A stretch of 40,000 nucleotides of DNA from Arsenophonus apicola (GCF_020268605.1 NZ_CP084222.1:2464856-2504855); one strand, 5' to 3'; positions 27,470 to 38,743 are shown, counted from the stretch's first letter. The notes: generated by a model from the letters alone, not told the origin. Program-made: numbers and translations.

Positions 27470-27826
27470 TTAAAGTTGGATATGATGTTTGCAGGCTCCA
27501 TTGTTTTTTAACTCTGGAGCTTCTTTTTTTGGCAATCTCAAATGTTCCAGCATATCTATCAGCTTGCGTATCTCTTCACCTGAGATATTTGTTATGACTA
27601 AATCCTGCTTCGGTGAATCGTACCCTATGCAATCAAGCAGTCTTGCCATCTTAGGAATTATTCCATCCTCTGACTGCCATCTCGTGATTTGAGAAGGATT
27701 TATGCCAATAGCGTGAGCAATTCTTATTGCTGAATGTGCCTGAATGCCATTGCGTATTTTGGCTTCAATATTTTTTGCATTTGATTTGCGTGTAATTGTG
27801 GTTTCCATGTCTATAATTAATTCCAT
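27470..27826 (-). CDS. cII: CII-like transcriptional activator
   Basis: The HTH and following helix (AIGINPSQITRWQSEDGIIPKMARLLDCIG) parallel lambda CII (AVGVDKSQISRWKRDWIPKFSMLLAVLEWG, as I recall it). It is directly downstream of cro and nutR. Confidence 0.65.
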   Translation of the reverse strand: MELIIDMETTITRKSNAKNIEAKIRNGIQAHSAIRIAHAIGINPSQITRWQSEDGIIPKMARLLDCIGYDSPKQDLVITNISGEEIRKLIDMLEHLRLPKKEAPELKNNGACKHHIQL

Positions 27827-27926
27827 AAGTTTCAGATAATAGTATTCCCTCCCGATGGGCTGGGAATTTATAAATCTCCCAATTTCAGGGAGGCCAAGTT
27901 GTTAAAGAGCGGTGTAAATTAGTTCG
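27823..27926 (-). repeat. Copy 1 of a ~100-bp repeat spanning the cro 3' end, nutR and the cII start
   Basis: Near-identical to 31291..31393, with only a handful of substitutions. Confidence 0.8.
27876..27911 (-). promoter_or_regulatory. nutR-like site 1 (boxA CGCTCTTTAAC plus boxB hairpin CTCCC-TGAAATT-GGGAG)
   Basis: Minus strand, directly after the cro stop. boxA matches the consensus. The boxB stem-loop carries a GAAA-containing loop 8 nt downstream. A second hairpin lies at 27844..27867. Confidence 0.6.
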
Positions 27927-28119
27927 ATTTTTGCTTGTTACTATTTGATGGAAAAGGTTTTATTTCTATTGCCTCAATTCCATTCTTAGTGAAATTTAAA
28001 AAAATTTTCCGATGTTGCTTCAATGCTCTGCTAACGGCTCCTTGGGTAATACCAAGTTCCTTAGCAGTTGTTTCTTGTCCATGTCGGTTTACATAATCCT
28101 CAATAGTAATTTTGTTCAT
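27919..28119 (-). CDS. cro: Cro repressor, module 1
   Basis: 66 aa, MNKITIEDYVNRHGQETTAKELGITQGAVSRALKQHRKIFL...IKPFPSN. It is collinear with lambda Cro ([38 protein letters not shown]...VKPFPSN). Confidence 0.85.
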   Translation of the reverse strand: MNKITIEDYVNRHGQETTAKELGITQGAVSRALKQHRKIFLNFTKNGIEAIEIKPFPSNSNKQKSN

Positions 28120-28142
28120 CCGAATCTCCTTTTAGATATATT

Positions 28143-28205
28143 ATTACATTCGGTAATAACGCATGTCAATACCGAATGTATTTCTATAATATGATCAACG
28201 GTAAT
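28143..28205. promoter_or_regulatory. OR1: three operators of type ATTAC-N5-GTAAT with divergent pR1 / pRM1 promoters
   Basis: ATTACATTCGGTAAT lies at 28143..28157, AATACCGAATGTATT at 28168..28182 and the half-conserved ATGATCAACGGTAAT at 28191..28205. Centres are 25 and 23 bp apart. pR1 on the minus strand is TTGACA-17-TAATAA. A plus-strand TATAAT lies at 28185..28190. Confidence 0.6.
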
Positions 28206-28216
28206 AAAATAAGAGC

Positions 28217-28696
28217 ATGAATAAGAAAAAACCTTTGACAAAAGAACAGCTAGATGATGCAAAAAGATTGAAATCAATCTACATGCTAAAAAAAAATGAA
28301 CTTTGCATCACTCAAGAAGATATAGCAGATCAATTAGGTATTGGTCAGGCTGCGGTTAGTCATTATCTAAATGGTGTAAATCCTTTAAATGCAAAAACTG
28401 TAGCTCTATTTGCAAAACTATTAAAAGTAAAACCAAATGAGATCAGCCCATCGATAGCTTTAGAGTTAGAAGAAATAGCAAAATTAATGCTACCAACAGA
28501 TCATAGTTATATGATACCTGATAATTCATATACCAAATTAACAAAAACAGAAGAAAAGCTTTTAGATATGTTCAATGCATTAACAGAAGATGAACAAAGA
28601 AATTATCTAGAAGAAATTGCTGAGACTCGGGCTAATCTTGAACGAATCTATAAAGAAATGAAAGAAAAAGAGAAAAAATCCAAAAGAGCATCGTGA
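28217..28696 (+). CDS. cI: CI-like repressor, module 1: lambda-CI-type N-terminal HTH domain and a short helical C-terminus, with no S24 peptidase domain
   Basis: 159 aa. KKKPLTKEQLDDAKRLKSIYMLKKNELCITQEDIADQLGIGQAAVSHYLNGVNPLNAKTVALFAKLLKVKPNEISPSIA is collinear with lambda CI residues about 4-85. The protein ends after about 70 more residues. Confidence 0.8.
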   Translation: MNKKKPLTKEQLDDAKRLKSIYMLKKNELCITQEDIADQLGIGQAAVSHYLNGVNPLNAKTVALFAKLLKVKPNEISPSIALELEEIAKLMLPTDHSYMIPDNSYTKLTKTEEKLLDMFNALTEDEQRNYLEEIAETRANLERIYKEMKEKEKKSKRAS

Positions 28697-28774
28697 TGCA
28701 TTTTTTAGAAATACAACCATTAAACTTATCTAAACAGGCATGACTATTTAGATTTTTATACAAAAGGACACTCT

Positions 28775-29614
28775 ATGAAGGTTAGTTTTTGGGCTTATTA
28801 TGCAAAAAATGATATCACTGATATAACAAGTAGAATTAATTTAACTCAGGCGATCAATGACAAAATAATAAATAAAAATTCTCATTCGCTTGAGTCTGGT
28901 AGTGACTATATATACTTACATCCTATAAATGCACAAACCTTTTTGTTTACTAAAACAAATGATTCTGAGCTAATAAAAAAAATTAACCAAACAAATAATT
29001 CAATTAACGATATCCGCGAAAGTTTAGCTGATGATGAAATACTAGGGTTTTCTTCTTTTGTTTTTATTGAAAATAGCATTTTAGGTTTTGTATCGACAAA
29101 TTGGAGCCCTAGAACGCGAGAATTTTGTGATTTTATAAAAAGTAAAGAATTGCTACAGCCTAACGAAAGCCTAATAGTTGAGCCTTTAATGCAAGGGATT
29201 ACTAAAGTTGATGCATTAAATATGAATTTTATCGGCAGAACGACTTTGAGGATTGAATCAGAAAACTCATTAACTAACAACATCCTCAGAAGTATTGGAG
29301 CTAAAAATGTAAGTGATGTGCTATTGAATGAAATTGAAATAATCATCAAACCTAAATATCGTAAAAATATTCAAAAATTAACAAAAGAAATTCTAGCAGC
29401 TAGCTATGATAAAATTGATGACATAAAAATTAAAGGCAAAGAATCAGCAGCTGATAAACTCACAGAATATTACTTAGATGGTAAAGGTCACATTGGCGCT
29501 AAAATAATAAAGAAAAGTTCTAACGCTGACATTGCTGAAGAAATTTTAGCTACGTACATTAGACTTAAACCATCTATACTTGAGTCTTTTAGAAAGATAG
29601 AATGTGAATTATAG
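28775..29614 (+). CDS. rexA: RexA homologue (abortive-infection/exclusion)
   Basis: 279 aa, the same length as lambda RexA. It shares blocks I recall from lambda RexA (TFLFTKTND, SLADDE-LGF, EPLM-G-TK, FIGRTT, IKPK, NA-IAEE). It sits directly after cI. Confidence 0.7.
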   Translation: MKVSFWAYYAKNDITDITSRINLTQAINDKIINKNSHSLESGSDYIYLHPINAQTFLFTKTNDSELIKKINQTNNSINDIRESLADDEILGFSSFVFIENSILGFVSTNWSPRTREFCDFIKSKELLQPNESLIVEPLMQGITKVDALNMNFIGRTTLRIESENSLTNNILRSIGAKNVSDVLLNEIEIIIKPKYRKNIQKLTKEILAASYDKIDDIKIKGKESAADKLTEYYLDGKGHIGAKIIKKSSNADIAEEILATYIRLKPSILESFRKIECEL

Positions 29615-29647
29615 CCGTATAAATTATATCATAGTGGGAAATATTTA

Positions 29648-30088
29648 ATGAACAAGTTGATAAAAATAGCATCAGCTATAATTCTATTTTCAATCCCATA
29701 CTTAATTACATTCCCAATTTTTTGTTGGTTTAAATATTCATTAACACCAAATCTATCTTTCTCCCTACACAGGGATGTTCTTGGTGCCACAGTTAGTTCT
29801 TATTCAAGCGCTCTTATTGCGGTACTTATAGTTGGACTCACATTTCTATTAGGGATAAAAAATAATAACTTCATTAAATTGCAGCAATACGGATACATGT
29901 TACCAATAATAACACTCTATGCTCTTACCTTTGTAGAGTTGGGAATATTGTTTTTTGCGGGTATAATTCTAATATCGAATTTTAAAGAATTACCATTACC
30001 ATCAATGGCTGCAATCATGGTTGTAACCTCATTTATGCACTTATGTTTATTGATACTTCAGCTGTATAATTTATCAAATAGAAAATAA
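29648..30088 (+). CDS. rexB: RexB homologue (polytopic membrane protein)
   Basis: 146 aa with four hydrophobic segments. It shares recalled lambda RexB blocks (HRD-LGAT-SSY, LTFL-G, YGYM, YAL-FVELG-LFF, QLYNL). Confidence 0.7.
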   Translation: MNKLIKIASAIILFSIPYLITFPIFCWFKYSLTPNLSFSLHRDVLGATVSSYSSALIAVLIVGLTFLLGIKNNNFIKLQQYGYMLPIITLYALTFVELGILFFAGIILISNFKELPLPSMAAIMVVTSFMHLCLLILQLYNLSNRK

Positions 30089-30108
30089 CCCTCCGCCCGA
30101 GGGTTTTT
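30087..30108 (+). terminator. Rho-independent terminator of the cI-rexA-rexB operon
   Basis: AACCCTC-CGCCC-GAGGGTT followed by a T5 run immediately after the rexB stop. Confidence 0.7.
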
Positions 30109-30281
30109 ATCGCCCTCTCACCACCCTCTACCTCACATACACTCTAATATCAACATAACTAACCCATACCCTAATATTCTCCATAGCTTTACTCTTCTTA
30201 TTTGTTTTAACCATCTCTTTATATCGCTGACAAAAATAATCCTTTTAAAATCATTCAATAAAAATGAAATAATGAATTTAT

Positions 30282-30323
30282 AATATTTTCGGTATTGACT
30301 TTATTTATTACCGAATGTAATAT
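30282..30323 (+). promoter_or_regulatory. OL1/pL1: two module-1 operators overlapping the promoter TTGACT-17-TAATAT
   Basis: AATATTTTCGGTATT lies at 30282..30296 and a perfect ATTACCGAATGTAAT at 30307..30321. The -35 is at 30295..30300 and the -10 at 30318..30323. The operator family is the same as in OR1. Confidence 0.6.
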
Positions 30324-30461
30324 CACCCCATCAACTCACTGCAACAGGCAAACGCCAGACAATACCACGAGTTATCTGAAACTTTGCCAAACGTTGCTAA
30401 GTAGCCAGCCCGAGGCATATGAACATGAAGGCAAGTGTAGTTCATCAGTACCTAAGTCATT

Positions 30462-30500
30462 CGCTCTTTAACATATTGGAATCACCGCTCTGAATAAGCG
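30462..30500 (+). promoter_or_regulatory. nutL-like site 1 (boxA CGCTCTTTAACA plus candidate boxB CGCT-CTGAATA-AGCG)
   Basis: boxA lies at 30462..30473. The weak hairpin at 30486..30500 has a GAA-containing loop. The site is in the pL1 leader upstream of the N-like gene. Confidence 0.45.
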
Positions 30501-30648
30501 TTAGAGCAACCCCACCAAGTGAGTTTTGGGGTGTGTGAATATAACAGAACAGTCAAATCTCGTTTTTACATCAGGGAATAAACAGACTGTGAGTAAAAAC
30601 CGTAAGCATCCCGGCACACACCACTAAAACTTATTTAGGAGAAACAAA

Positions 30649-30963
30649 ATGGCAACCATTATCTTTAAACCTAAAAAAGACAATGCTAAATCCCGTCGCC
30701 TGGCAAAACAAATGGCATTCTGGGATAGAAAACGCGCTGAATACGAAGCGAAACCTAAGCCACGTTCTACAGAGCAAATCCTTGATTCCATATTCAACAA
30801 GCAGGATGACACCGTTAATACCATTGCATCACTCACTCTCAATCTAAAAGACAGAAAGCCTCAGCCTTCATTTGATAACTGTTGTTTACCGAATACTTAT
30901 CTTTATCATACAAATAAGGCATCAAAAAACTTATTGAAAATACTCGCCGCACGTGCAAAATGA
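30649..30963 (+). CDS. N: N-like antiterminator, module 1
   Basis: 104 aa and the first gene after pL1/nutL1. Has a basic N-terminal arginine-rich stretch (KSRRLAKQMAFWDRKRAEYEAK). The C-terminal motif FDNCCLP is shared with the second N-like protein. Confidence 0.55.
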   Translation: MATIIFKPKKDNAKSRRLAKQMAFWDRKRAEYEAKPKPRSTEQILDSIFNKQDDTVNTIASLTLNLKDRKPQPSFDNCCLPNTYLYHTNKASKNLLKILAARAK

Positions 30964-30997
30964 AATTTAAGTCATCGGAAAGCGGACGATAAAATCA

Positions 30998-31252
30998 ATG
31001 AATTACATTGTAAAGTGTCCAATATGTGGAAAAAAGTTCAATGTTAAAAATCCATCAAAACATATCAATGCTTATCACCCTGATGCATCTGAGCAAGATT
31101 TAATAGCAATTAGAGATGCTCGTAGAAGTTTGCTAGGAAAACCGATTAAAACTCATCATAAGACTAAACATTATCTTTTAAAAAACATCACAAAGCATGA
31201 TGGTAAAAAGCCTTTTAGTGGTGGACTTCCATCACTTGGAAAAAAAAGATGA
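30998..31252 (+). CDS. Hypothetical small zinc-finger-like basic protein
   Basis: 84 aa. CPICGKKF...HINAYH is a C2H2-like arrangement. Confidence 0.45.
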   Translation: MNYIVKCPICGKKFNVKNPSKHINAYHPDASEQDLIAIRDARRSLLGKPIKTHHKTKHYLLKNITKHDGKKPFSGGLPSLGKKR

Positions 31253-31290
31253 TTTGATAGTCTTTGCAGCAATCTTATCCTACACTTAAT

Positions 31291-31393
31291 CCATAAGTTT
31301 TAGATAATAATATTCCCTCCCGATGGGCTGGGAATGTAAAATCTCCCAATTTCAGGGAGGCCAGGTTGTTAAAGAGCGGTGTAAATTAGTTCG
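31291..31393 (-). repeat. Copy 2 of the cro-3'end/nutR/cII-start repeat; the cII remnant is reduced to ATG GAT TAA
   Basis: Aligns with 27823..27926. Contains boxA (31368..31378) and boxB (31343..31359). Similarity fades about 10 nt beyond the vestigial cII ATG at 31294. Confidence 0.8.
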
Positions 31394-31589
31394 TTTTTTG
31401 CTTGATATTGCTTGACGGAAAAGGTTTTACTTCCTCAGCTTCAATTTTCCCGTCATCATGGATAAGAACAGTAATTCTTCTTCTCATACGGAGCGCTTTA
31501 CTTATACCACTTTGGTATAAACCTAGCGCTTTAGCTGTTTTTCCTTGTCCATGCAGTTTTACATATTCAAGTAAAGATAATCGTTTCAT
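31386..31589 (-). CDS. cro: Cro repressor, module 2
   Basis: 67 aa, MKRLSLLEYVKLHGQGKTAKALGLYQSGISKALRMRRRITVL...EEVKPFPSS. Its recognition helix (YQSGISKAL) is closer to lambda Cro than that of module 1. Confidence 0.85.
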   Translation of the reverse strand: MKRLSLLEYVKLHGQGKTAKALGLYQSGISKALRMRRRITVLIHDDGKIEAEEVKPFPSSNIKQKTN

Positions 31590-31615
31590 TAAAATCTCCC
31601 TTGGCTTGCTTTTAT

Positions 31616-31679
31616 TATCACTTGAAGAGATTTTATTGTCAACACCGCTAAAGGTTTGAAGTTATTCCTCTAGGTGATA
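31616..31679. promoter_or_regulatory. OR2: three lambda-like 17-bp operators with divergent pR2 / pRM2
   Basis: TATCACTTGAAGAGATT lies at 31616..31632, TCAACACCGCTAAAGGT at 31639..31655 and TATTCCTCTAGGTGATA at 31663..31679. Centres are 23 and 24 bp apart. pR2 on the minus strand is TTGACA-17-GATAAT. A plus-strand TTTGAA-17-TAAAAT ends 7 nt before the cI2 ATG, so the mRNA may be leaderless. Confidence 0.65.
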
Positions 31680-31690
31680 AAATTATTTAC

Positions 31691-32149
31691 ATGAAAAAGA
31701 AACCATTAAATCAAGAACAGCTAGCTGACGCTAAGCGATTAAAAGCGCTATTTAATGCGAAAAAGAAGGAATTAGGTTTATCTCAGGCCGTAGTTGCTGA
31801 TCACCTTGGAATTGTACAAAGTGCAGTAAATTCTTTGCTAAATGGTGTTAATGCACTTAATGCACGCAACGCTGTTGCTCTTGCAAAATTATTAAGGGTG
31901 TCTGTAAATGACTTTAGTCCATCTATTGCAAAAGAAATAGCGATGATGTATCAAACTGTGGATGTAAATGATCCAAACATGAATTTAGTCCATGATTTAT
32001 CGCAACAAGAAAAAAATTTATTGCAAATGTTTAATGAGTTACCACAAAAAGAAAAAGATAAATTTATAAGTCAAATTAATTCGAGAAAAAACGAACTTGA
32101 TCAGCTTTATGAAGAAATGAAAGCCGTTAAAGAAAAGAAAGCTTGTTAA
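31691..32149 (+). CDS. cI: CI-like repressor, module 2: same truncated architecture, different recognition helix
   Basis: 152 aa. [82 protein letters not shown] is very close to the lambda CI N-terminal domain. The C-terminus is homologous to that of module 1 ([16 protein letters not shown]...LYEEMK). Confidence 0.8.
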
Positions 32150-32219
32150 TTTTTTATCCCTCCAATTTATATATTTTATTATCTTAAAATCAATAAATTA
32201 GGTTTCTTCTGCATAAATA

Positions 32220-32262
32220 AATCTCTTGCGGTGTTGACTTTTAAATCTTAAAAAGTGATACT
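32220..32262 (+). promoter_or_regulatory. OL2/pL2: two lambda-like operators and the promoter TTGACT-17-GATACT
   Basis: AATCTCTTGCGGTGTTG lies at 32220..32236 and AATCTTAAAAAGTGATA at 32244..32260. The layout mirrors lambda pL (TATCTCTGGCGGTGTTGACA...GGTGATACT, as I recall it). Confidence 0.65.
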
Positions 32263-32395
32263 TATCTCCATCAACTCACTGCAACAGGCAAAAGCCAGAC
32301 AATACTCCGAGTTATCTGAAACTTTGCCAGACGTTGCTAAGTAGCCAGCCTGAGGCGTACGAACATGAAGGCAAGTGACGACAGTTAAGCAATAC

Positions 32396-32428
32396 CGCTC
32401 TTTAACATCCTTTCGCTGAAAAAGCGAA
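32396..32428 (+). promoter_or_regulatory. nutL-like site 2 (boxA CGCTCTTTAACA plus boxB TCGCT-GAAAA-AGCGA)
   Basis: boxB is a 5-bp stem with a GAAAA pentaloop, the same loop as lambda nutR boxB (GCCCT-GAAAA-AGGGC). Confidence 0.65.
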
Positions 32429-32582
32429 CCACAAAACACCCAAACAGTCGGTTTTGGGGTGTGTGAAATAACCAAAATAAAGTCATTCTTCTAATGCCAA
32501 TACCAGGGTAATACCTGCATGATTGTAAATTTGACTGGTTAGCCCTATCACACACCACCAAAACTTATTGTCAGGAGGTAAT

Positions 32583-32924
32583 ATGTGTAACTTTCATGGT
32601 TATGATAATGCTCGTCGTCGTAGAAATGAGCGTAGAAGATCCAGGCAAGCAGCTTATGAATATAACAGAGCACTTAATATGGCACTGAAAGCAGCCTTAA
32701 ATCGAAGCAAGCCCTCTCAGCAACAAACACCAACAAATACTAAACGCCCTATCCTTTCACTAAAAAGAAAAGTGATTAATCGTGTAGAAAAAGCAATATC
32801 AATTCGTCCTACTAAAGTTTATGACGCATTTAATAACTGCTGTTTGCCTATAGCAGCTTTGTATACTTCTAGACGTTTTCACAGTAAACCTAAATCCAAC
32901 TTTGGAGTCACTGCTAACTGTTAA
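32583..32924 (+). CDS. N: N antiterminator, module 2 (lambda N-like)
   Basis: Start at ATG 32583 with AGGAGG 5 nt upstream; the track used an upstream TTG. The arginine-rich motif is NARRRRNERRRSRQAAYEY. The block KRPILSLKRKVINRVEKA parallels lambda N NRPILSLNRKPKSRVESA. Confidence 0.7.
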   Translation: MCNFHGYDNARRRRNERRRSRQAAYEYNRALNMALKAALNRSKPSQQQTPTNTKRPILSLKRKVINRVEKAISIRPTKVYDAFNNCCLPIAALYTSRRFHSKPKSNFGVTANC

Positions 32925-33885: not shown

Positions 33886-33905
33886 TAATATTGTCAGGTG
33901 AAAAA

Positions 33906-35634
33906 ATGAGTAAAAATATGCCAACAATGAATTTTGATACTAAAAATCAATCTTTTAATGAATTATTAAGTCCTTCATATAACTACATTGTCCCTCCTTT
34001 TCAACGTGATTATTCTTGGGAAGAGTCTGACTGGAATGAACTTTGGCAAGACATAGTAAGTTTACTAAACGATGAGCCATATTCTTTTCATTATATGGGT
34101 TACCTGGTACTACAAAGCGAAGATACAAAAAATTTTAAGATTGTTGATGGGCAACAAAGGATTACAACCATTAGTATAATAATTCTAGCTGCATGTTCCA
34201 TATTTGATGATTTAATAAATAATAATATTGATACAGAACAAAACAAAACAAGGAAAGAAAAATTTATAAGTAGTTATATAGGTTATACAGATCCTGTTCT
34301 AATCTGTGAACATACTAAATTACAACTAAATAAAAATAATGATAATTACTATCAAACTTATTTAGCTACATTAGCAAAGTTACCACAAAGAAACTTAAAT
34401 AACTCAGAGCATAAATTAAGGAAATCATTCTTTTTCTTCAAAAAAGAAATGGAAAATTATTTGTCTGAAATTCATGATAAAGGAACAGGATTAGCAAAAT
34501 TAATTGTTTTATAACAGAAAAGCTTTGCTTTACAACAATTACGGTAAGTAATGAAATCAATGCATTTAAAGTTTTTGAAACTCTAAATGCCAGAGGAGTA
34601 AAATTATCATCTACTGATTTATTAAAAAATTATATATTTTCAATTATTACTAACGAAAGTACTCATAATAATGAACTACGCCACTTAGAAAATAGATGGG
34701 AAAGAATTGTATCTATATTAGGAAACGATGAACTTACAGAACTTGTTCGCATTTATTGGAATAGCAAAAATAAATTAGCAAGAAAAAAAGAATTATTTAA
34801 AACGATAAAATCAACAATCAAAACAAAAGAGGACGCCTTTAATTTATTAAAAGAAATAGATAATTGCGCAGAAGTATACTCTGCTTTAAAAGATACTAAA
34901 GACTCCAATTTTTGGGATGATGAAGAAAAACATTACCTTGAATTACTATTCAATATATTCAATGTCAAACAACCATTTTCAATGCTTATTGCCTGCTATA
35001 ATGCATTTTATAACAATGACAGGAAAGGATTTAAAAAAATATTAAAATATATAACAATAATAACATTTAGATATAATATAATTTGTGGAATGCTTCCTCA
35101 TGAACAAGAAAGATTATATAGTTCAATATCACAAGGAATTTCATTAGAAAGTTATGGTGTTTCAAAAGTATTGAAAAATTTAAAAATTAAATTATATCCA
35201 TCAGATGATACATTCAAAAATGATTTTTCAAATAAAATAATAAAGACTGGTAATAATAGAAATACAAAACTTATAAAATATATACTTACTGAAATAGAAA
35301 AAAGTATAACAAATAGTACATCATACTATGATTTAAATACGGTAACTGTAGAGCATATTTTACCAAAATCTCCATCTGATGAATGGAATATTGGAAACGA
35401 TTATCATTTTGATAACCTAGTACATAGGATAGGTAATATGTGTTTATTAGCTAGCAATGACAATAAAAAGATAGGAAATAAATCCTTTGAGTATAAAAAC
35501 CATCCTATATCAATAGTAAATTTGATATAACAAAATACATTGGGAGTAATTATGAAGAATGGAATGAAAATTCAATAATAGAACGCCAAAAATTCTTAGC
35601 AAAAAAAAGCATTAAATATCTGGTCACTGAATGA
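33906..35634 (+). pseudogene. DUF262 (ParB-like NTPase/nuclease) plus DUF1524 (His-Me/HNH-like) protein, GmrSD-type type IV restriction/defence enzyme, broken by at least two 1-nt frameshifts
   Basis: Frame 0 reads IVPPFQRDYSWEESDWNELWQDI ... VDGQQRITT and stops at 34514. Frame -1, open from 34481, reads FKVFETLNARGVKLSSTDLLKNY ... TVEHILPKSP...HRIGNMCLL...NKKIGNKSF and stops at 35530. The next -1 frame, from about 35497, reads INSKFDITKYIGSNYEEWNENSIIERQKFLAKK. The shifts sit at T/A runs near 34495..34510 and at A5 35495..35499. Confidence 0.65.
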
Positions 35635-36323: not shown

Positions 36324-36581
36324 ATGAGATTGGACAATCCACGCATTGTAACAGCAAAACACCCTAATATGGGTAATCTGGTTGGGGTGACTAATGGCAG
36401 TCGCCATTTGAGCGATTCAATATACTTAAGCAGTATTGATATTAGTGATGATGATGACAGAGAAGTACGCTCTTTTAAGACAATCATACAGTGCTTAACA
36501 AATGAAAATGATCGTCTTAAGAAAGAGAACCGAAGACTCATGAAGATATACCGTGGAATTGGCGGGCTGTGCAGGATTTGA
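36324..36581 (+). CDS. Hypothetical protein with an acidic stretch and a C-terminal coiled coil
   Basis: 85-aa ORF with AAGAAGGA upstream. Its last 22 nt overlap the tRNA-like element on the other strand. Confidence 0.4.
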   Translation: MRLDNPRIVTAKHPNMGNLVGVTNGSRHLSDSIYLSSIDISDDDDREVRSFKTIIQCLTNENDRLKKENRRLMKIYRGIGGLCRI

Positions 36582-36632
36582 ACCTGCAATAAGTAAACTT
36601 CATTTACTGCTTTACCATTCAGCTAACAGTTC
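36560..36632 (-). tRNA. Degenerate tRNA-like element (anticodon-loop GAA, Phe-like), probably a pseudo-tRNA
   Basis: Minus strand: GAACTGT TA GCTG AATGGTA AAGC AGTAA ATGAAGT TTACT TATT GCAGG TTCAAAT CCTGC ACAGCCC G CCA. The T-arm, anticodon arm and encoded CCA are perfect. The acceptor stem has two A.C mismatches and position 26 is missing (73 nt). Confidence 0.4.
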
Positions 36633-36640
36633 ACTGACAA

Positions 36641-36973
36641 TCATAAGGCAGGCATCAAAAAGGCTTTTACCACAAGAGAAAGGATACCTAAAATACCCGC
36701 CCCCAACATCCAGCGTATTAATTTTTGTTCAGCACGAATTCCTGACATCTCTAGCTGTAGGTCTTTGCGGACTATTTCCATGTCTTTACGAACATCAGAT
36801 ATTTGCGCGCTTAAATCTTTGCGGACATCATCTAAATCTCTCTTTGTTGCTACATCAACCGCTTCGTGTGACTCACGCACAGCAATAGAAATCGCTTTCG
36901 CCTGTTCTGTTGGTAATCCAGCGCTTTCAAGCGTTTCAACAAATTTTAGTGTATCAAATGCAACCTGACCCAT
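36641..36973 (-). CDS. DUF1640-like coiled-coil protein with a C-terminal TM anchor
   Basis: Start taken at MGQVAFDTLKFVETLESAGL (ATG 36973, RBS GGAGGA). Has a repeated VRKDL motif and the terminal hydrophobic segment WMLGAGILGILSLVV. Confidence 0.6.
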   Translation of the reverse strand: MGQVAFDTLKFVETLESAGLPTEQAKAISIAVRESHEAVDVATKRDLDDVRKDLSAQISDVRKDMEIVRKDLQLEMSGIRAEQKLIRWMLGAGILGILSLVVKAFLMPAL

Positions 36974-37015
36974 AGGTAATCCTCCTTTTTGGTAAGTATA
37001 ACCTAACAATAACCA

Positions 37016-37045
37016 TTGACGAAAGAACAAATCATGCGCTATAGT
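37016..37045 (+). promoter_or_regulatory. Candidate promoter of the antirepressor-operon leader / small RNA
   Basis: TTGACG (37016..37021), 18-nt spacer, TATAGT (37040..37045). Confidence 0.4.
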
Positions 37046-37051
37046 TTATTT

Positions 37052-37129
37052 GCATCTGCAAAATCAGATGTCGGGATTCGAAACCCGTCAGTGTGTACCG
37101 GCCAATAACACGCCGAATGCGTGTTTTTT
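37052..37129 (+). ncRNA. Candidate ~78-nt small RNA or terminated leader with three hairpins
   Basis: Hairpin 1 is CATCTG-CAAAAT-CAGATG. Hairpin 2 is CGGG-ATTCGAAA-CCCG. Hairpin 3 is the terminator AACACGC-CGAAT-GCGTGTT plus T6 (37107..37129). The coordinates are predicted, not measured. Confidence 0.3.
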
Positions 37130-37287
37130 ATTGGTCATAACCTAGTCACATATCAATGGTGGCTCAGGTAGGGGAACCGTAAGGTTCGCCGGAGGTACAC
37201 CGGTATTTCGAACCCTGTCTGGGCTACCACCACGAGATTCGAAACTCCAGTGGTAGCATTTATCTAAATGTACCATTGGAGGTCAAT

Positions 37288-37821
37288 ATGACCACTCACT
37301 CATCCCTTGTTATTCCTAAAGTTAGTATTCACAAAGGTAAAGCGATTACCACCTCACAAGATGTAGCCGAATACTTCAACAAGCGCCATGACAACGTTCT
37401 ACGTGCTATCGGCAGTCTTGAGTGTTCATCTGAGTTTCGTCTCCTCAATTTTGAGGAGACGTTCTACATACGAGAAAATCCCAACGGTGGAGATGGGATC
37501 TCAACAAAGTGCTACGAAATGACTAAAGACGGCTTCGTATTCTTGGTGATGGGATTTACCGGAAAGAAAGCCGCTCAATTCAAGGAAGCCTACATTGCTG
37601 AATTTAATCGCATGGAAGCACAATTACACAATGCTGTTACCGTAACAGGTAATACAAACAAAATTCTTCTCACTTTACTTCCCAATGGCAAAGTAGATAG
37701 CGCAAGAGTAATTCATGATAATGAATATGTCGCTTCACTAGAGTCACTCTTCGAAATTGGTCGTCGTGCTGGTTACATGATCATTCACAAAGATGAATTA
37801 ATCAAAAAATTATCAGAATAG
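37288..37821 (+). CDS. Rha-family regulatory protein / putative antirepressor
   Basis: ATG 37288 follows GGAGG; the track used an upstream TTG. AITTSQDVAEYFNKRHDNVLRAI...YEMTKDGFVFLVMGFTGKKAAQFKEAYIAEFNRME is the Rha (pRha) domain pattern. Confidence 0.7.
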   Translation: MTTHSSLVIPKVSIHKGKAITTSQDVAEYFNKRHDNVLRAIGSLECSSEFRLLNFEETFYIRENPNGGDGISTKCYEMTKDGFVFLVMGFTGKKAAQFKEAYIAEFNRMEAQLHNAVTVTGNTNKILLTLLPNGKVDSARVIHDNEYVASLESLFEIGRRAGYMIIHKDELIKKLSE

Positions 37822-37918: not shown

Positions 37919-38743
37919 ATGCAAAATTTAATCAATATAGAAACAAAAAACATCAGTGGTGAATTAATCCAAACGGTTAATGCCCGTGATTTACATGCGT
38001 TTTTAGAAATTACTACGCGATTTAATGATTGGATAAATAGGCGTATAGCAGAATATAGTTTTGAAGAGAACATTGACTATATTATTGCTGAAAATTTGAG
38101 CTACTCAAATTTGAGTAGTGCAAAATCTCGCCAACGTATGATGAAAGACTACTATATCGCCATCGATATGGCGAAAGAGCTATCCATGGTTGAACGCAAT
38201 GAAAAAGGGAAACAGGCAAGGCAGTATTTTATTGAATGCGAAAGACGTGTTTTACAACCTCAACTTCACATTCAAACATTACTACCAACAAAAAAAGAAC
38301 TCGCTCTCATGGTTGTTCGTGCTGAAGAAGAGAAAGAACAGTTATTACTGGAAAATAAAAGTCTCTCAACCGAAAACGATTGTCTTAAAAATCTCTTTAA
38401 GGAAGGTATGACCCCTACCCAATTTAGCAAAATGCTTAATGGCGTAAACAGTCAGCAGATAAATCATTTTCTGGCAGAGAGGAAGTGGCTCTACAACGAA
38501 AGTAAATCCGGCATACGCTGGCGTGTTGCTTCTTATGCACGGGATAAATATTTAACCGAAAAACAAAGCGAAATAAGCCCACACGGTGCTGACAGATTCA
38601 TTAGTTATCAACCTGTATTACTCAAAAAAGGGGCGCGACGTCTCTATGATTTGTATCTGGATTACAAGCTGCCCATGAAACTGACGTGGAATGGTTCACA
38701 TACTCATGACAAGTCCATCCAGGGTATTCACCTGAAGCACTGA
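37919..38743 (+). CDS. AntA/KilAC-type antirepressor
   Basis: ATG 37919 follows GAGGA. The N-terminal AntA-like block is VNARDLHAFLEITTRFNDWINRRIAEYSFEENIDY. The C-terminal part is KilA-C/ANT-like. Confidence 0.7.
   Translation: MQNLINIETKNISGELIQTVNARDLHAFLEITTRFNDWINRRIAEYSFEENIDYIIAENLSYSNLSSAKSRQRMMKDYYIAIDMAKELSMVERNEKGKQARQYFIECERRVLQPQLHIQTLLPTKKELALMVVRAEEEKEQLLLENKSLSTENDCLKNLFKEGMTPTQFSKMLNGVNSQQINHFLAERKWLYNESKSGIRWRVASYARDKYLTEKQSEISPHGADRFISYQPVLLKKGARRLYDLYLDYKLPMKLTWNGSHTHDKSIQGIHLKH

Follow-up and report, generated by a model that had tools for sequence, protein, structure and literature searches.

Two prophage repressors of Arsenophonus apicola that combine lambda-type heads with DicA-type tails, and their candidate antirepressors

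The repressors of the Gifsy-1, -2 and -3 prophages (GfoR, GtgR/GftR and GfhR; ~136 aa) are uncleaved during induction and are inactivated by the antirepressors GfoA, GftA and GfhA, which are LexA-controlled (PMC3121763). For DicA of Qin, a cryptic prophage of Escherichia coli K-12, Rem has been shown experimentally to be an antirepressor that lifts DicA repression of dicBp (PMC10448788). Antirepressor genes can also be placed under an RNA: the immI region of P1/P7 combines the c4 antisense RNA with icd and ant, and the isrK-orf45-anrP unit of Gifsy-1 is a precedent for such a gate (PMC4825925).

We analyzed a 40,000-nt stretch of the Arsenophonus apicola genome (GCF_020268605.1 NZ_CP084222.1:2464856-2504855; the window, with positions counted from its first letter) together with the 46-kb prophage found there. 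The prophage resembles lambda in gene order (cI-rexA-rexB, N, cro, cII), in the fold and sequence of the repressor N-terminal domain and in its 17-bp palindromic operators at OR and OL. Its two repressors, cI1 and cI2, differ from lambda CI in lacking the S24 domain and the Ala-Gly site, hence RecA-stimulated autocleavage, and in ending in a helical tail of ~50 residues. Like DicA, they are short HTH repressors with the same two-helix C-terminal domain, a divergent cro-like partner (DicC in Qin) and a coding sequence for a Rem-family domain within a few kb; unlike DicA, two such repressors lie in tandem.

cI1 and cI2 lack a self-cleavage domain

cI1 (159 aa; 28217–28696, + strand) comprises a lambda-CI-type DNA-binding head (residues 1–91), a disordered linker (92–109) and a DicA-type two-helix tail (110–158). 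cI2 (152 aa; 31691–32149, + strand) has the same architecture and is 46% identical to cI1 over the full length, tails included; its recognition helix and its operators differ from those of cI1. The lambda CI N-terminal domain (1rio/1lmb) aligns with cI1 residues 2–89, through ...SPSIA (E 1e-26), in agreement with the first-pass annotation, which had matched both proteins to this domain through ...FSPSIA; the head of these repressors is 59% identical to it. HTH_3 is the sole Pfam match in either protein (E 2–3e-9) and Peptidase_S24 (PF00717) matches neither. A six-frame search of the whole genome with PF00717 yielded six S24 regions, none of them in the 40-kb window or the 46-kb prophage, and the translations, read directly, contain no Ala-Gly or Cys-Gly dipeptide.

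In the AlphaFold2 model (mean pLDDT 85), cI1 has five N-terminal helices, disorder at residues 92–109 and helices at 110–120 and 124–158, with no beta structure. Foldseek matched this model only to the lambda CI N-terminal domain (rmsd 0.7–1.2, TM 0.93–0.95) and other HTH proteins. The cI2 tail, compared by alignment with that of the modeled cI1, has 52 residues and is too short for an S24 fold. The start of rexA lies 78 nt 3' of cI1, and a promoter and leader lie 3' of cI2, leaving no space for an S24 ORF downstream. These data confirm that cI1 and cI2 are without a self-cleavage domain. The first-pass annotation had reported no S24/LexA-like domain, Ala-Gly site or Ser/Lys dyad region in either protein and no downstream ORF that could supply one; all of this holds, and the HMM search with Peptidase_S24 and HTH_3 that it had suggested gave the expected outcome. 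Because both the cleavage site and the catalytic domain are missing from these sequences, we infer that RecA cannot inactivate cI1 or cI2.

The phage lineage has a tandem layout, cro-repressor-N, twice. Divergent from cI1 is cro1 (27919–28119, − strand; lambda Cro family, PF09048, E 8e-19), after which come cII, an O-like gene and a primase/helicase gene; divergent from cI2 is cro2 (31386–31589, − strand; lambda Cro family, PF09048, E 3e-24), followed by just the first bases of a cII gene (repeats D3 and D4). Each repressor has its own predicted operator set at OR and OL. OR1 (28142–28206; repeat I1) contains predicted 17-bp palindromic operators, TATTAC-N5-GTAATA, with a perfect copy at 28142–28158, a variant at 28167–28183 and a two-mismatch copy at 28190–28206. 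Two operators of the same type and repeat form OL1/PL1 (30282–30322; perfect copy at 30306–30322) and overlap a TTGACT −35 hexamer. A second operator type, TCAACACCGC-N-A-N-AG-N-T, lies at OR2 between cro2 and cI2 (31639–31655) and, on the − strand, at OL2/PL2 (32221–32237), where it overlaps a TTGACT −35 hexamer 3' of cI2. In another Arsenophonus genome, a single-module prophage has a 94%-identical cI1 as its sole repressor. We consider it probable that cI1 and cI2 function as immunity repressors and fall into the DicA/Gifsy (GtgR, GfoR) class. The prophage also carries a GmrSD-like gene, which is split.

The tail and its repressor class

Positions 6–133 of the 135-position NCBIfam DicA profile (NF007257) align with cI1 residues 25–156 and cI2 residues 17–150; the scores, 36.3 and 39.9 bits, are below the cut-off of 101 because the heads are lambda-CI-type and not DicA/P22-C2-like. 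A profile of tail-type repressors matched K-12 DicA over the entire tail (hhalign probability 99.8%) and the Gifsy-2 repressor (98%), including the motif E-x-LL-x-x-F-N-x-LP-x-x-E; the tail motif is common to cI1, cI2 and the Gifsy repressors. The class signature, 130–160 aa with an HTH head and a two-helix C-terminal domain bearing E-x-x-LL-x-x-F-x-x-LP-x-x-E, is present in both proteins, with LT in cI1 where the class has LP. On sequence grounds, cI1 and cI2 belong to the wider DicA/Gifsy class, outside the DicA subfamily. Since the tail matches the DicA and Gifsy domain, both proteins are chimeras that join a lambda-type head to a tail of DicA type; as this tail is an already known domain, they fall into a known repressor class and pose no new puzzle.

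When a profile was run against 1.84 billion proteins, the tail was confined to the C-terminal end of HTH proteins of 113–218 aa. Within Arsenophonus, the same tail occurs on three unrelated HTH heads, the copy in P0010 being identical to the cI1 tail. The tail is a portable module. It most likely provides the dimerization required for 17-bp palindromic operators. Many members of the tail family end in KRAS, KKAS, NKAS or KAS; K-12 DicA, the G123 proteins and the L040 protein do not have a K-(R/K)-A-S end.

According to the first-pass annotation, induction could not follow the lambda route and probably depended on an antirepressor, a view strengthened by the match of both tails to a class that antirepressors inactivate (PMC3121763, PMC10448788). 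A DicA-like tail is no guarantee of antirepressor sensitivity; a Rem-family protein could contact the tail or the HTH head.

The Rha-Rem gene and its putative RNA gate

The best antirepressor candidate is a 177-aa Rha-Rem fusion (37288–37821, + strand) that combines Phage_pRha (PF09669) with a Rem-family domain (phrog_340), at residues 25–114 and ~128–176, numbered from the TTG start of the 181-aa frame (37276–37821). phrog_340 matches residues 136–176 of this ORF (E 1.5e-11) and includes Rem itself (E 4e-21); direct BLASTP similarity to Rem is modest (E 7e-6, 33% identity across 40 residues). Unlike the free-standing ~60–90-aa Rem and GfoA antirepressors, the Rem-like domain forms the C-terminal end of a Rha fusion and lies behind an isrK/C4 gate. 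Of 36 tail-type repressor genes in 28 other genomes, 18 have a Rem-family gene no more than 10 kb away, against a chance expectation of 0.23. Downstream, and predicted from the sequence to be co-transcribed with Rha-Rem, lies a gene for an AntA + KilAC antirepressor-family protein (37919–38743, + strand; PF08346 + PF03374, phrog_63), the second candidate. A second Ant gene is located directly upstream of xis. Both ORFs, at 37288 and 37919, had been named as candidates before, and the domains are where they were placed; the Rha-like protein now gains specific support from its Rem-family domain, and AntA/KilAC keeps only a generic family annotation.

The first-pass annotation missed an RNA module with its own promoter that may gate these genes. 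A sigma-70-like promoter (TTGACG-18-TATAGT, 10/12; 37016–37045, + strand) precedes an isrK-type RNA (37052–37129, + strand; 67 bits, gathering score 50) that has a1/b1 decoy sites and ends in an intrinsic terminator (37107–37125), and then a C4-type antisense RNA (37152–37234, + strand; 67 bits, gathering score 45). The C4 words GGUACA and UUUCGAA are complementary to 37093/37077 (a1/b1) and to 37269/37238 (a2/b2); the a2/b2 words lie just 5' of a GGAGG ribosome-binding site at 37279 (4 nt ahead). The complementarity consists of 6–7-nt words, with an overall duplex energy no better than that of shuffled controls, and the a1b1 Rfam model scores 39 bits, under its gathering score of 46.7. As in P1/P7 immI and the Gifsy-1 unit, isrK and C4 RNAs above Rfam gathering scores lie directly 5' of antirepressor-type genes, and the complementary words resemble a1/b1 and a2/b2 of immI. 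The first protein gene differs, being the Rha-Rem fusion and not icd or orf45, and the immunity repressors are DicA-tailed, unlike P1 C1.

By analogy with their class, we propose that cI1 and cI2 are DicA/Gifsy-class immunity repressors switched off by an antirepressor, for which Rha-Rem is the best candidate; we regard this account as reasonably likely. In each repressor, the lambda-CI-type head is joined by a flexible linker to a DicA-type two-helix tail that replaces the S24 cleavage/oligomerization domain. The Rha-like protein, whose C-terminal ~50 residues are of the Rem family, would bind the repressors and inactivate them, with AntA/KilAC as the second candidate. In the lysogen, the isrK/C4 gate would keep Rha-Rem and Ant untranslated; induction would begin when the gate opens or when a sibling prophage supplies an antirepressor in trans. 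Antirepressor-based induction with possible crosstalk among co-resident prophages would resemble Gifsy. In contrast to Gifsy, the candidate gene lies in the early-left region and under RNA control, and no dinI-gfoA-type unit was detected 3' of the replication genes; a search of the genome for a GftA homologue gave none.

It is unlikely, although both Ant proteins belong to antirepressor-annotated families (PF08346 + PF03374, phrog_63), that the antirepressor is instead AntA/KilAC or the second Ant and that Rha-Rem has another role, such as that of a transcription regulator. The first Ant shares the C4 gate and transcript with the Rha-like gene, as ant does in P1, and a 97%-identical copy is retained in a sibling prophage. 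However, its annotation is generic and our analysis found no link between AntA/KilAC and DicA-type repressors, whereas the Rem family is tied to them by experiment (PMC10448788) and by genomic linkage. Two relatives bear on the module as a whole. L037 has the same isrK/C4-Rha/Ant module, yet both its repressors carry S24, so the presence of the module alone is no proof of compensation for a missing S24 domain. In L036, where both repressors are tailed, the C-terminal end of the Rha ORF, compared by eye, is unlike the Rem-like domain. Together these patterns indicate that the Rha/Ant module is not specific to S24-less phages.

DNA damage, sibling prophages and other routes to induction

The LexA consensus CTGT-N8-ACAG is absent from the window, where one-mismatch matches occur at chance level. 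With a LexA PWM, the best site in the 46-kb prophage scores 9.2 bits, compared with 15–27 bits for host SOS boxes. LexA control of an antirepressor gene, as in Gifsy, was thus not found in the prophage, and SOS induction via antirepressors, which the first-pass annotation had implied, is left without sequence support. Without a LexA box, any link to DNA damage is either indirect or missing, and the trigger is something other than direct SOS control of the antirepressor.

Three sibling prophages in the genome have a short tail-type repressor and a 235–243-aa S24 repressor in the same tandem layout, with S24 in the distal immunity cassette. In at least one sibling (C1, about 1122–1131 kb), the early-left operon holds Rha-Rem/Ant. 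We tentatively suggest a two-tier switch, in which a distal S24 SOS sensor guards an early-left operon whose antirepressors remove the proximal DicA-tailed master repressor, the sensor having been swapped for a second DicA-tailed repressor in the prophage of the window. If so, the common DicA-type tail would let both tiers answer one signal, and this phage would be SOS-blind, needing its RNA gate or piggyback induction by antirepressors of S24-bearing siblings.

Induction could come from outside altogether: DNA damage would induce the S24-bearing siblings, and their antirepressors would then reach cI1 and cI2 in trans, or LexA-controlled Tum/DinI-like proteins of P2-like prophages would do so. 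The tandem siblings fit this scheme, as do sibling Rha-Rem C-terminal domains nearly identical to that in the window and the 97%-identical Ant. Two perfect LexA boxes lie upstream of DinI/Tum-like small ORFs in P2-like elements, and Gifsy and Fels-1 are known to have antirepressors that work in trans (PMC3121763). Nevertheless, the scheme is read from layout, the tails of the siblings' proximal repressors are rather different (E about 1e-4 against the profile), decay is seen in several sibling elements, and our analysis gives no support for action of Tum/DinI-like proteins on DicA/Gifsy-class repressors; we consider it improbable.

That there is no dedicated inducer, with either spontaneous CI/Cro bistability or a domesticated, decaying element kept for rexAB, the GmrSD-like gene or immunity, seems quite improbable. 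Arsenophonus is a heritable insect symbiont rich in decaying prophages; the lack of a LexA box, the split GmrSD-like gene and the heavily pseudogenized sibling on contig C4 are in keeping with this view, and antirepressor-independent spontaneous derepression is documented for DicA/DicC (PMC10448788). Against this, int, xis, cro, cII, N, the Q-like gene, the replication genes and large structural ORFs are all open, and an intact RNA-gated Rha-Rem/Ant unit is retained. Removal by a host protease of the ClpXP or Lon type via the conserved, basic K-(R/K)-A-S C terminus is very improbable: such ends are common in the family and recall C-terminal ClpX recognition signals, a lead, but the DicA, G123 and L040 proteins lack them and no known class member is regulated in this way. 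Finally, cI1 and cI2 share their head with 230–249-aa S24 repressors of Proteus and others, but the view that they are truncated or frameshifted remnants of such proteins is refuted by a conserved, confidently folded tail present in many genera and in DicA, by the lack of an S24 coding remnant in any frame of the prophage and by clean gene ends before the next functional element.

For annotation, a CI-like gene with a lambda head and no S24 domain is thus to be read as a domain-swapped member of the DicA/Gifsy class, recognizable by its ~50-residue tail motif, and not as a broken gene. The search for the off-switch should start with a Rem-family domain within 10 kb, and the head/tail chimera is a clean natural case in which to ask what region of a DicA-type repressor its Rem-type antirepressor recognizes. 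In Arsenophonus, the prophage is predicted to have no direct response to DNA damage, and co-resident prophages may be linked in their induction, a point relevant to how these symbionts lose or retain genes carried by phages.

Repressors with a lambda-type head and a DicA-type tail

The repressors cI1 (28217–28696, + strand) and cI2 (31691–32149, + strand) share 46% identity over their whole length. Both had been read at first pass as lambda CI N-terminal domains, aligned through SPSIA, that lack the Peptidase_S24 (S24) self-cleavage domain and its Ala-Gly site. Each part of this reading was borne out: cI1 residues 2–89 match lambda CI with an E-value of 1e-26, Pfam assigns HTH_3 only to both proteins, and neither translation contains Ala-Gly or Cys-Gly. 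A six-frame genome search for Peptidase_S24 recovered six regions (LexA, UmuD, three long prophage repressors and one fragment on contig C4), none of which lies inside the window's prophage. The AlphaFold2 model of cI1 (pLDDT 85) comprises five lambda-type helices, a disordered linker (residues 92–109) and a tail of two confident helices (110–120 and 124–158). Foldseek with the whole model returned the lambda N-domain at an rmsd of about 1 Å and no S24-like structure, with significant matches (E ≤ 0.001) confined to the head; a PDB sequence search gave no match for the tail.

An origin of the short repressors by truncation or frameshift is ruled out, as no S24 remnant is present in any frame and the tail forms a folded domain that is conserved. 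An alignment of Arsenophonus homologues revealed one tail on three unrelated HTH heads, the tail of the homologue P0010 being identical to that of cI1. Because it is joined to three such heads, the tail is a portable domain, not a frameshift product. A search of 1.84 billion representative proteins with a profile of the two window tails placed the tail only at the C-terminal end of short HTH proteins (113–218 aa), with Arsenophonus, Fukatsuia, Photorhabdus and Xenorhabdus as named sources; the remaining matches were long coiled-coil noise. Of 200 whole genomes sampled from the family, 28 yielded 130–180-aa frames with the tail profile.

Against NCBIfam NF007257 ('transcriptional repressor DicA'), the alignments of cI1 and cI2 start at the HTH and run on to the final helix, at only 36–40 bits because the heads are lambda-type; one of the relatives reaches 190 bits, well over the cut-off. 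A profile of tail-type repressors, those that end in this tail, matched E. coli K-12 DicA with 99.8% probability, covering the tail in full, and the Gifsy-2 repressor with 98%, including the hallmark E-x-LL-x-x-F-N-x-LP-x-x-E. Judged by these profiles, cI1 and cI2 are chimeras of the wider DicA/Gifsy class that lie outside the DicA subfamily. Whole DicA-type queries against a phage collection gave matches that included Gifsy-1/-2, phiES15, mEp460 and Tritos; the tail alone gave no tblastn match in the phage collection, probably owing to the shortness and low complexity of the query. In another Arsenophonus genome, a single-module prophage has a 94%-identical cI1 and no other repressor, which shows that a lambda-head/DicA-tail chimera can serve as sole master repressor.

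In many tail-type repressors the C-terminus is K/R-A-S preceded by a run of basic residues (KRAS, KKAS, NKAS, QKAS). The C-terminus of cI1 is coded at 28682–28693, cI2 ends in KKAC, and K-12 DicA has no K/R-A-S ending; such a C-terminus could be a recognition signal for a protease or a partner. Protein P0022 (71 aa) is a free-standing ORF consisting of the tail domain alone; it may be part of a broken gene, or else a natural form that acts as a dominant negative or a decoy.

Tandem immunity cassettes in a prophage within acnB

The window takes in most of a 46-kb lambdoid prophage and lies in an Arsenophonus-like genome, whose nearest protein relatives are all assigned to Arsenophonus. The prophage sits inside acnB, and the acnB halves flank the element (contig C1, about 2461950–2508200), with the C-terminal part of aconitase B to the left (locus L032, 13701–15053) and the N-terminal part to the right (locus L031, 2054–4351). 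Tail-fibre genes occupy the left end of the prophage. The integrase and excisionase genes lie at its opposite end, 2–3 kb past the right edge of the window, and xis is immediately preceded by a second AntA/KilAC gene (245 aa; L031 1152–1889). Host DNA to the left of acnB (L032 972–9317) contains two very large ORFs of 1042 and 1723 aa, one with RTX calcium-binding repeats and the other with a Peptidase_C80 domain.

The immunity region contains both repressor genes. Downstream of cI1 lie rexA, rexB, the OL/PL region, an N-like gene and a small zinc-finger ORF, while cro1, cII, an O-like initiator gene and a primase/helicase gene run away from cI1 on the − strand. cI2 is preceded by a second cro (− strand), and beyond it come a further PL region and a further N-like gene. 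A 110-nt block opens both PL transcripts (30328–30437 and 32268–32377) with 94% identity despite diverged surrounding genes. After each copy come a boxA-like CGCTCTTTAACA and a hairpin. The block also matches an Actinobacillus phage record and has no family match in Rfam. A GmrSD-type restriction gene at 33891–35530, in very AT-rich DNA (27–30% GC), is broken into at least two frames (GmrSD_N, 33891–34514; GmrSD_C, 34982–35530).

The tandem layout cII, cro, repressor, N, cro′, repressor′, N′ (27822–32924) is shared by three sibling prophages of the same genome, which combine a short tail-type proximal repressor with a 235–243-aa S24 distal repressor. Since the layout is found in other prophages of the genome (contig C1, about 1807.9–1812.0, 1353.1–1356.9 and 1126.7–1130.5 kb; a decaying element on contig C4, L035 4049–9640) and in another genus (L036 4742–8342; L037 4950–8532), tandem immunity cassettes are a conserved architecture and no one-off recombination scar. 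Pairings of tail-type with S24, tail-type with tail-type and S24 with S24 repressors all occur. This tandem-cassette architecture is the more unusual feature of the prophage.

The decaying sibling on contig C4 (52 kb; L035 5007–5608 and 8416–8856) carries a 96%-identical cI1 copy without the N-terminal arm and first helix. Its rexA and rexB are fragmented, and its distal S24 repressor is in pieces of 107 and 62 aa.

Candidate antirepressors and an upstream RNA module

Gifsy repressors (136 aa) stay uncleaved during induction; small antirepressors under LexA control inactivate them, in some cases across prophages (PMC3121763). DicA (135 aa) has no Ala-Gly bond, and its repression is relieved by the Qin-encoded Rem; spontaneous flipping of the DicA/DicC switch occurs as well (PMC10448788). 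The first-pass annotation had reasoned that induction does not follow the lambda route and probably depends on an antirepressor. This is what the DicA/Gifsy class predicts, given the uncleaved, antirepressor-inactivated Gifsy repressors and the relief of DicA by Rem (PMC3121763, PMC10448788).

Both antirepressor candidates put forward with that reasoning are real, with PF09669 in the Rha-like ORF (37288–37821) and PF08346 and PF03374 in the AntA/KilAC ORF (37919–38743). Residues 136–176 of the Rha-like ORF match phrog_340 (E 1.5e-11), the family to which Rem belongs, and BLASTP aligns the ORF to Rem with 33% identity over 40 residues (E 7e-6). The genome encodes ten Rem-like domains, all C-terminal, on Rha-like, Bro/Ant-like or truncated proteins; the window's domain and its counterparts in three sibling elements are nearly identical, although the N-terminal parts differ. 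In 28 other genomes, a phrog_340 match lies within 10 kb of 18 of 36 tail-type repressor loci versus 0.23 expected from hits per genome, in a sample that spans more than 20 genera and in which related genomes are not independent. The linkage between the Rem family and tail-type repressors is strong. Searches of the Gifsy-1, Gifsy-2 and Tritos records with the Rha-Rem protein gave no match.

Directly 5′ of the Rha-Rem gene, Rfam places an isrK RNA (37052–37129, + strand), ended by an intrinsic terminator, and a C4 antisense RNA (37152–37234, + strand), both over the gathering score. A sigma-70 promoter is predicted at 37016–37045 (+ strand; 10/12 match). Two words within C4, GGUACA and UUUCGAA, have complements in the isrK region and again at 37269 and 37238, immediately 5′ of the ribosome-binding site (GGAGG) that serves the ATG at 37288. 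In phage P1 immI, control follows an a1/b1 and a2/b2 pairing logic. The Rha-Rem unit resembles immI in the complementarity of its C4 words to the isrK region and to sites preceding the ribosome-binding site. C4 may pair with these targets, although the duplex energies are no better than those of shuffled controls. The unit is also arranged like the isrK-orf45-anrP unit of Gifsy-1, in which translation of an antirepressor-like protein is switched on by IsrK (PMC4825925).

C4 RNA occurs in ten copies in the genome. A second isrK and C4 pair (L032 15289–16294) lies past the tail-fibre genes at the prophage's left end and precedes a 272-aa Rha protein without a Rem-like end. Directly upstream of the isrK promoter, in the early-left region, 36560–37030 holds a tRNA-Phe gene and a 129-aa coiled-coil (CCDC90-like) ORF on the − strand. 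The same CCDC90-like ORF also precedes the isrK/C4 module in L036 and L037 and in L045, a locus of another Arsenophonus genome.

The view that the Rha/Ant module compensates for the missing S24 domain is weakened by L037, where two S24 repressors stand in tandem and the isrK/C4 module is still present. In L036, which carries two tail-type repressors, the C-terminal end of the Rha ORF is unlike the Rem-like domain when judged by eye. Given these two relatives, the isrK/C4-Rha/Ant module is a trait of the phage lineage and no specific substitute for S24.

SOS wiring and class membership

Canonical LexA boxes are present in the host at lexA, umuD, dinB, recN and sulA. The prophage has no strict LexA box match, its one-mismatch matches are at chance level, and its best score is 9.2 bits versus 15–27 for host sites with a matrix derived from the host's own sites. 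These strict, one-mismatch and matrix scans rule out a LexA-controlled antirepressor within the prophage. No homologue of the Gifsy protein GftA was found in the genome, an empty answer that proves little. The RNA gate may itself be the sensor, or the signal may arrive in trans. An inducing signal in trans is plausible because the siblings keep a distal S24 repressor and near-identical Rem-like domains.

Elsewhere on contig C1, perfect LexA boxes at 532564 and 940847 each precede a 67–96-aa ORF (L033 3755–4045; L034 3972–4241) with weak matches to DinI/Tum-like families (phrog_698, phrog_189). Both ORFs lie in P2-like prophage remnants and adjoin replication gene A, the position at which phage 186 carries its antirepressor gene tum.

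The initial observation on the repressors is correct, and its antirepressor interpretation is supported. cI1 and cI2 belong to a known class, and three features are local to this case: freedom from LexA control, a lambda-type head, and the fusion of a Rem domain to Rha downstream of an RNA gate.
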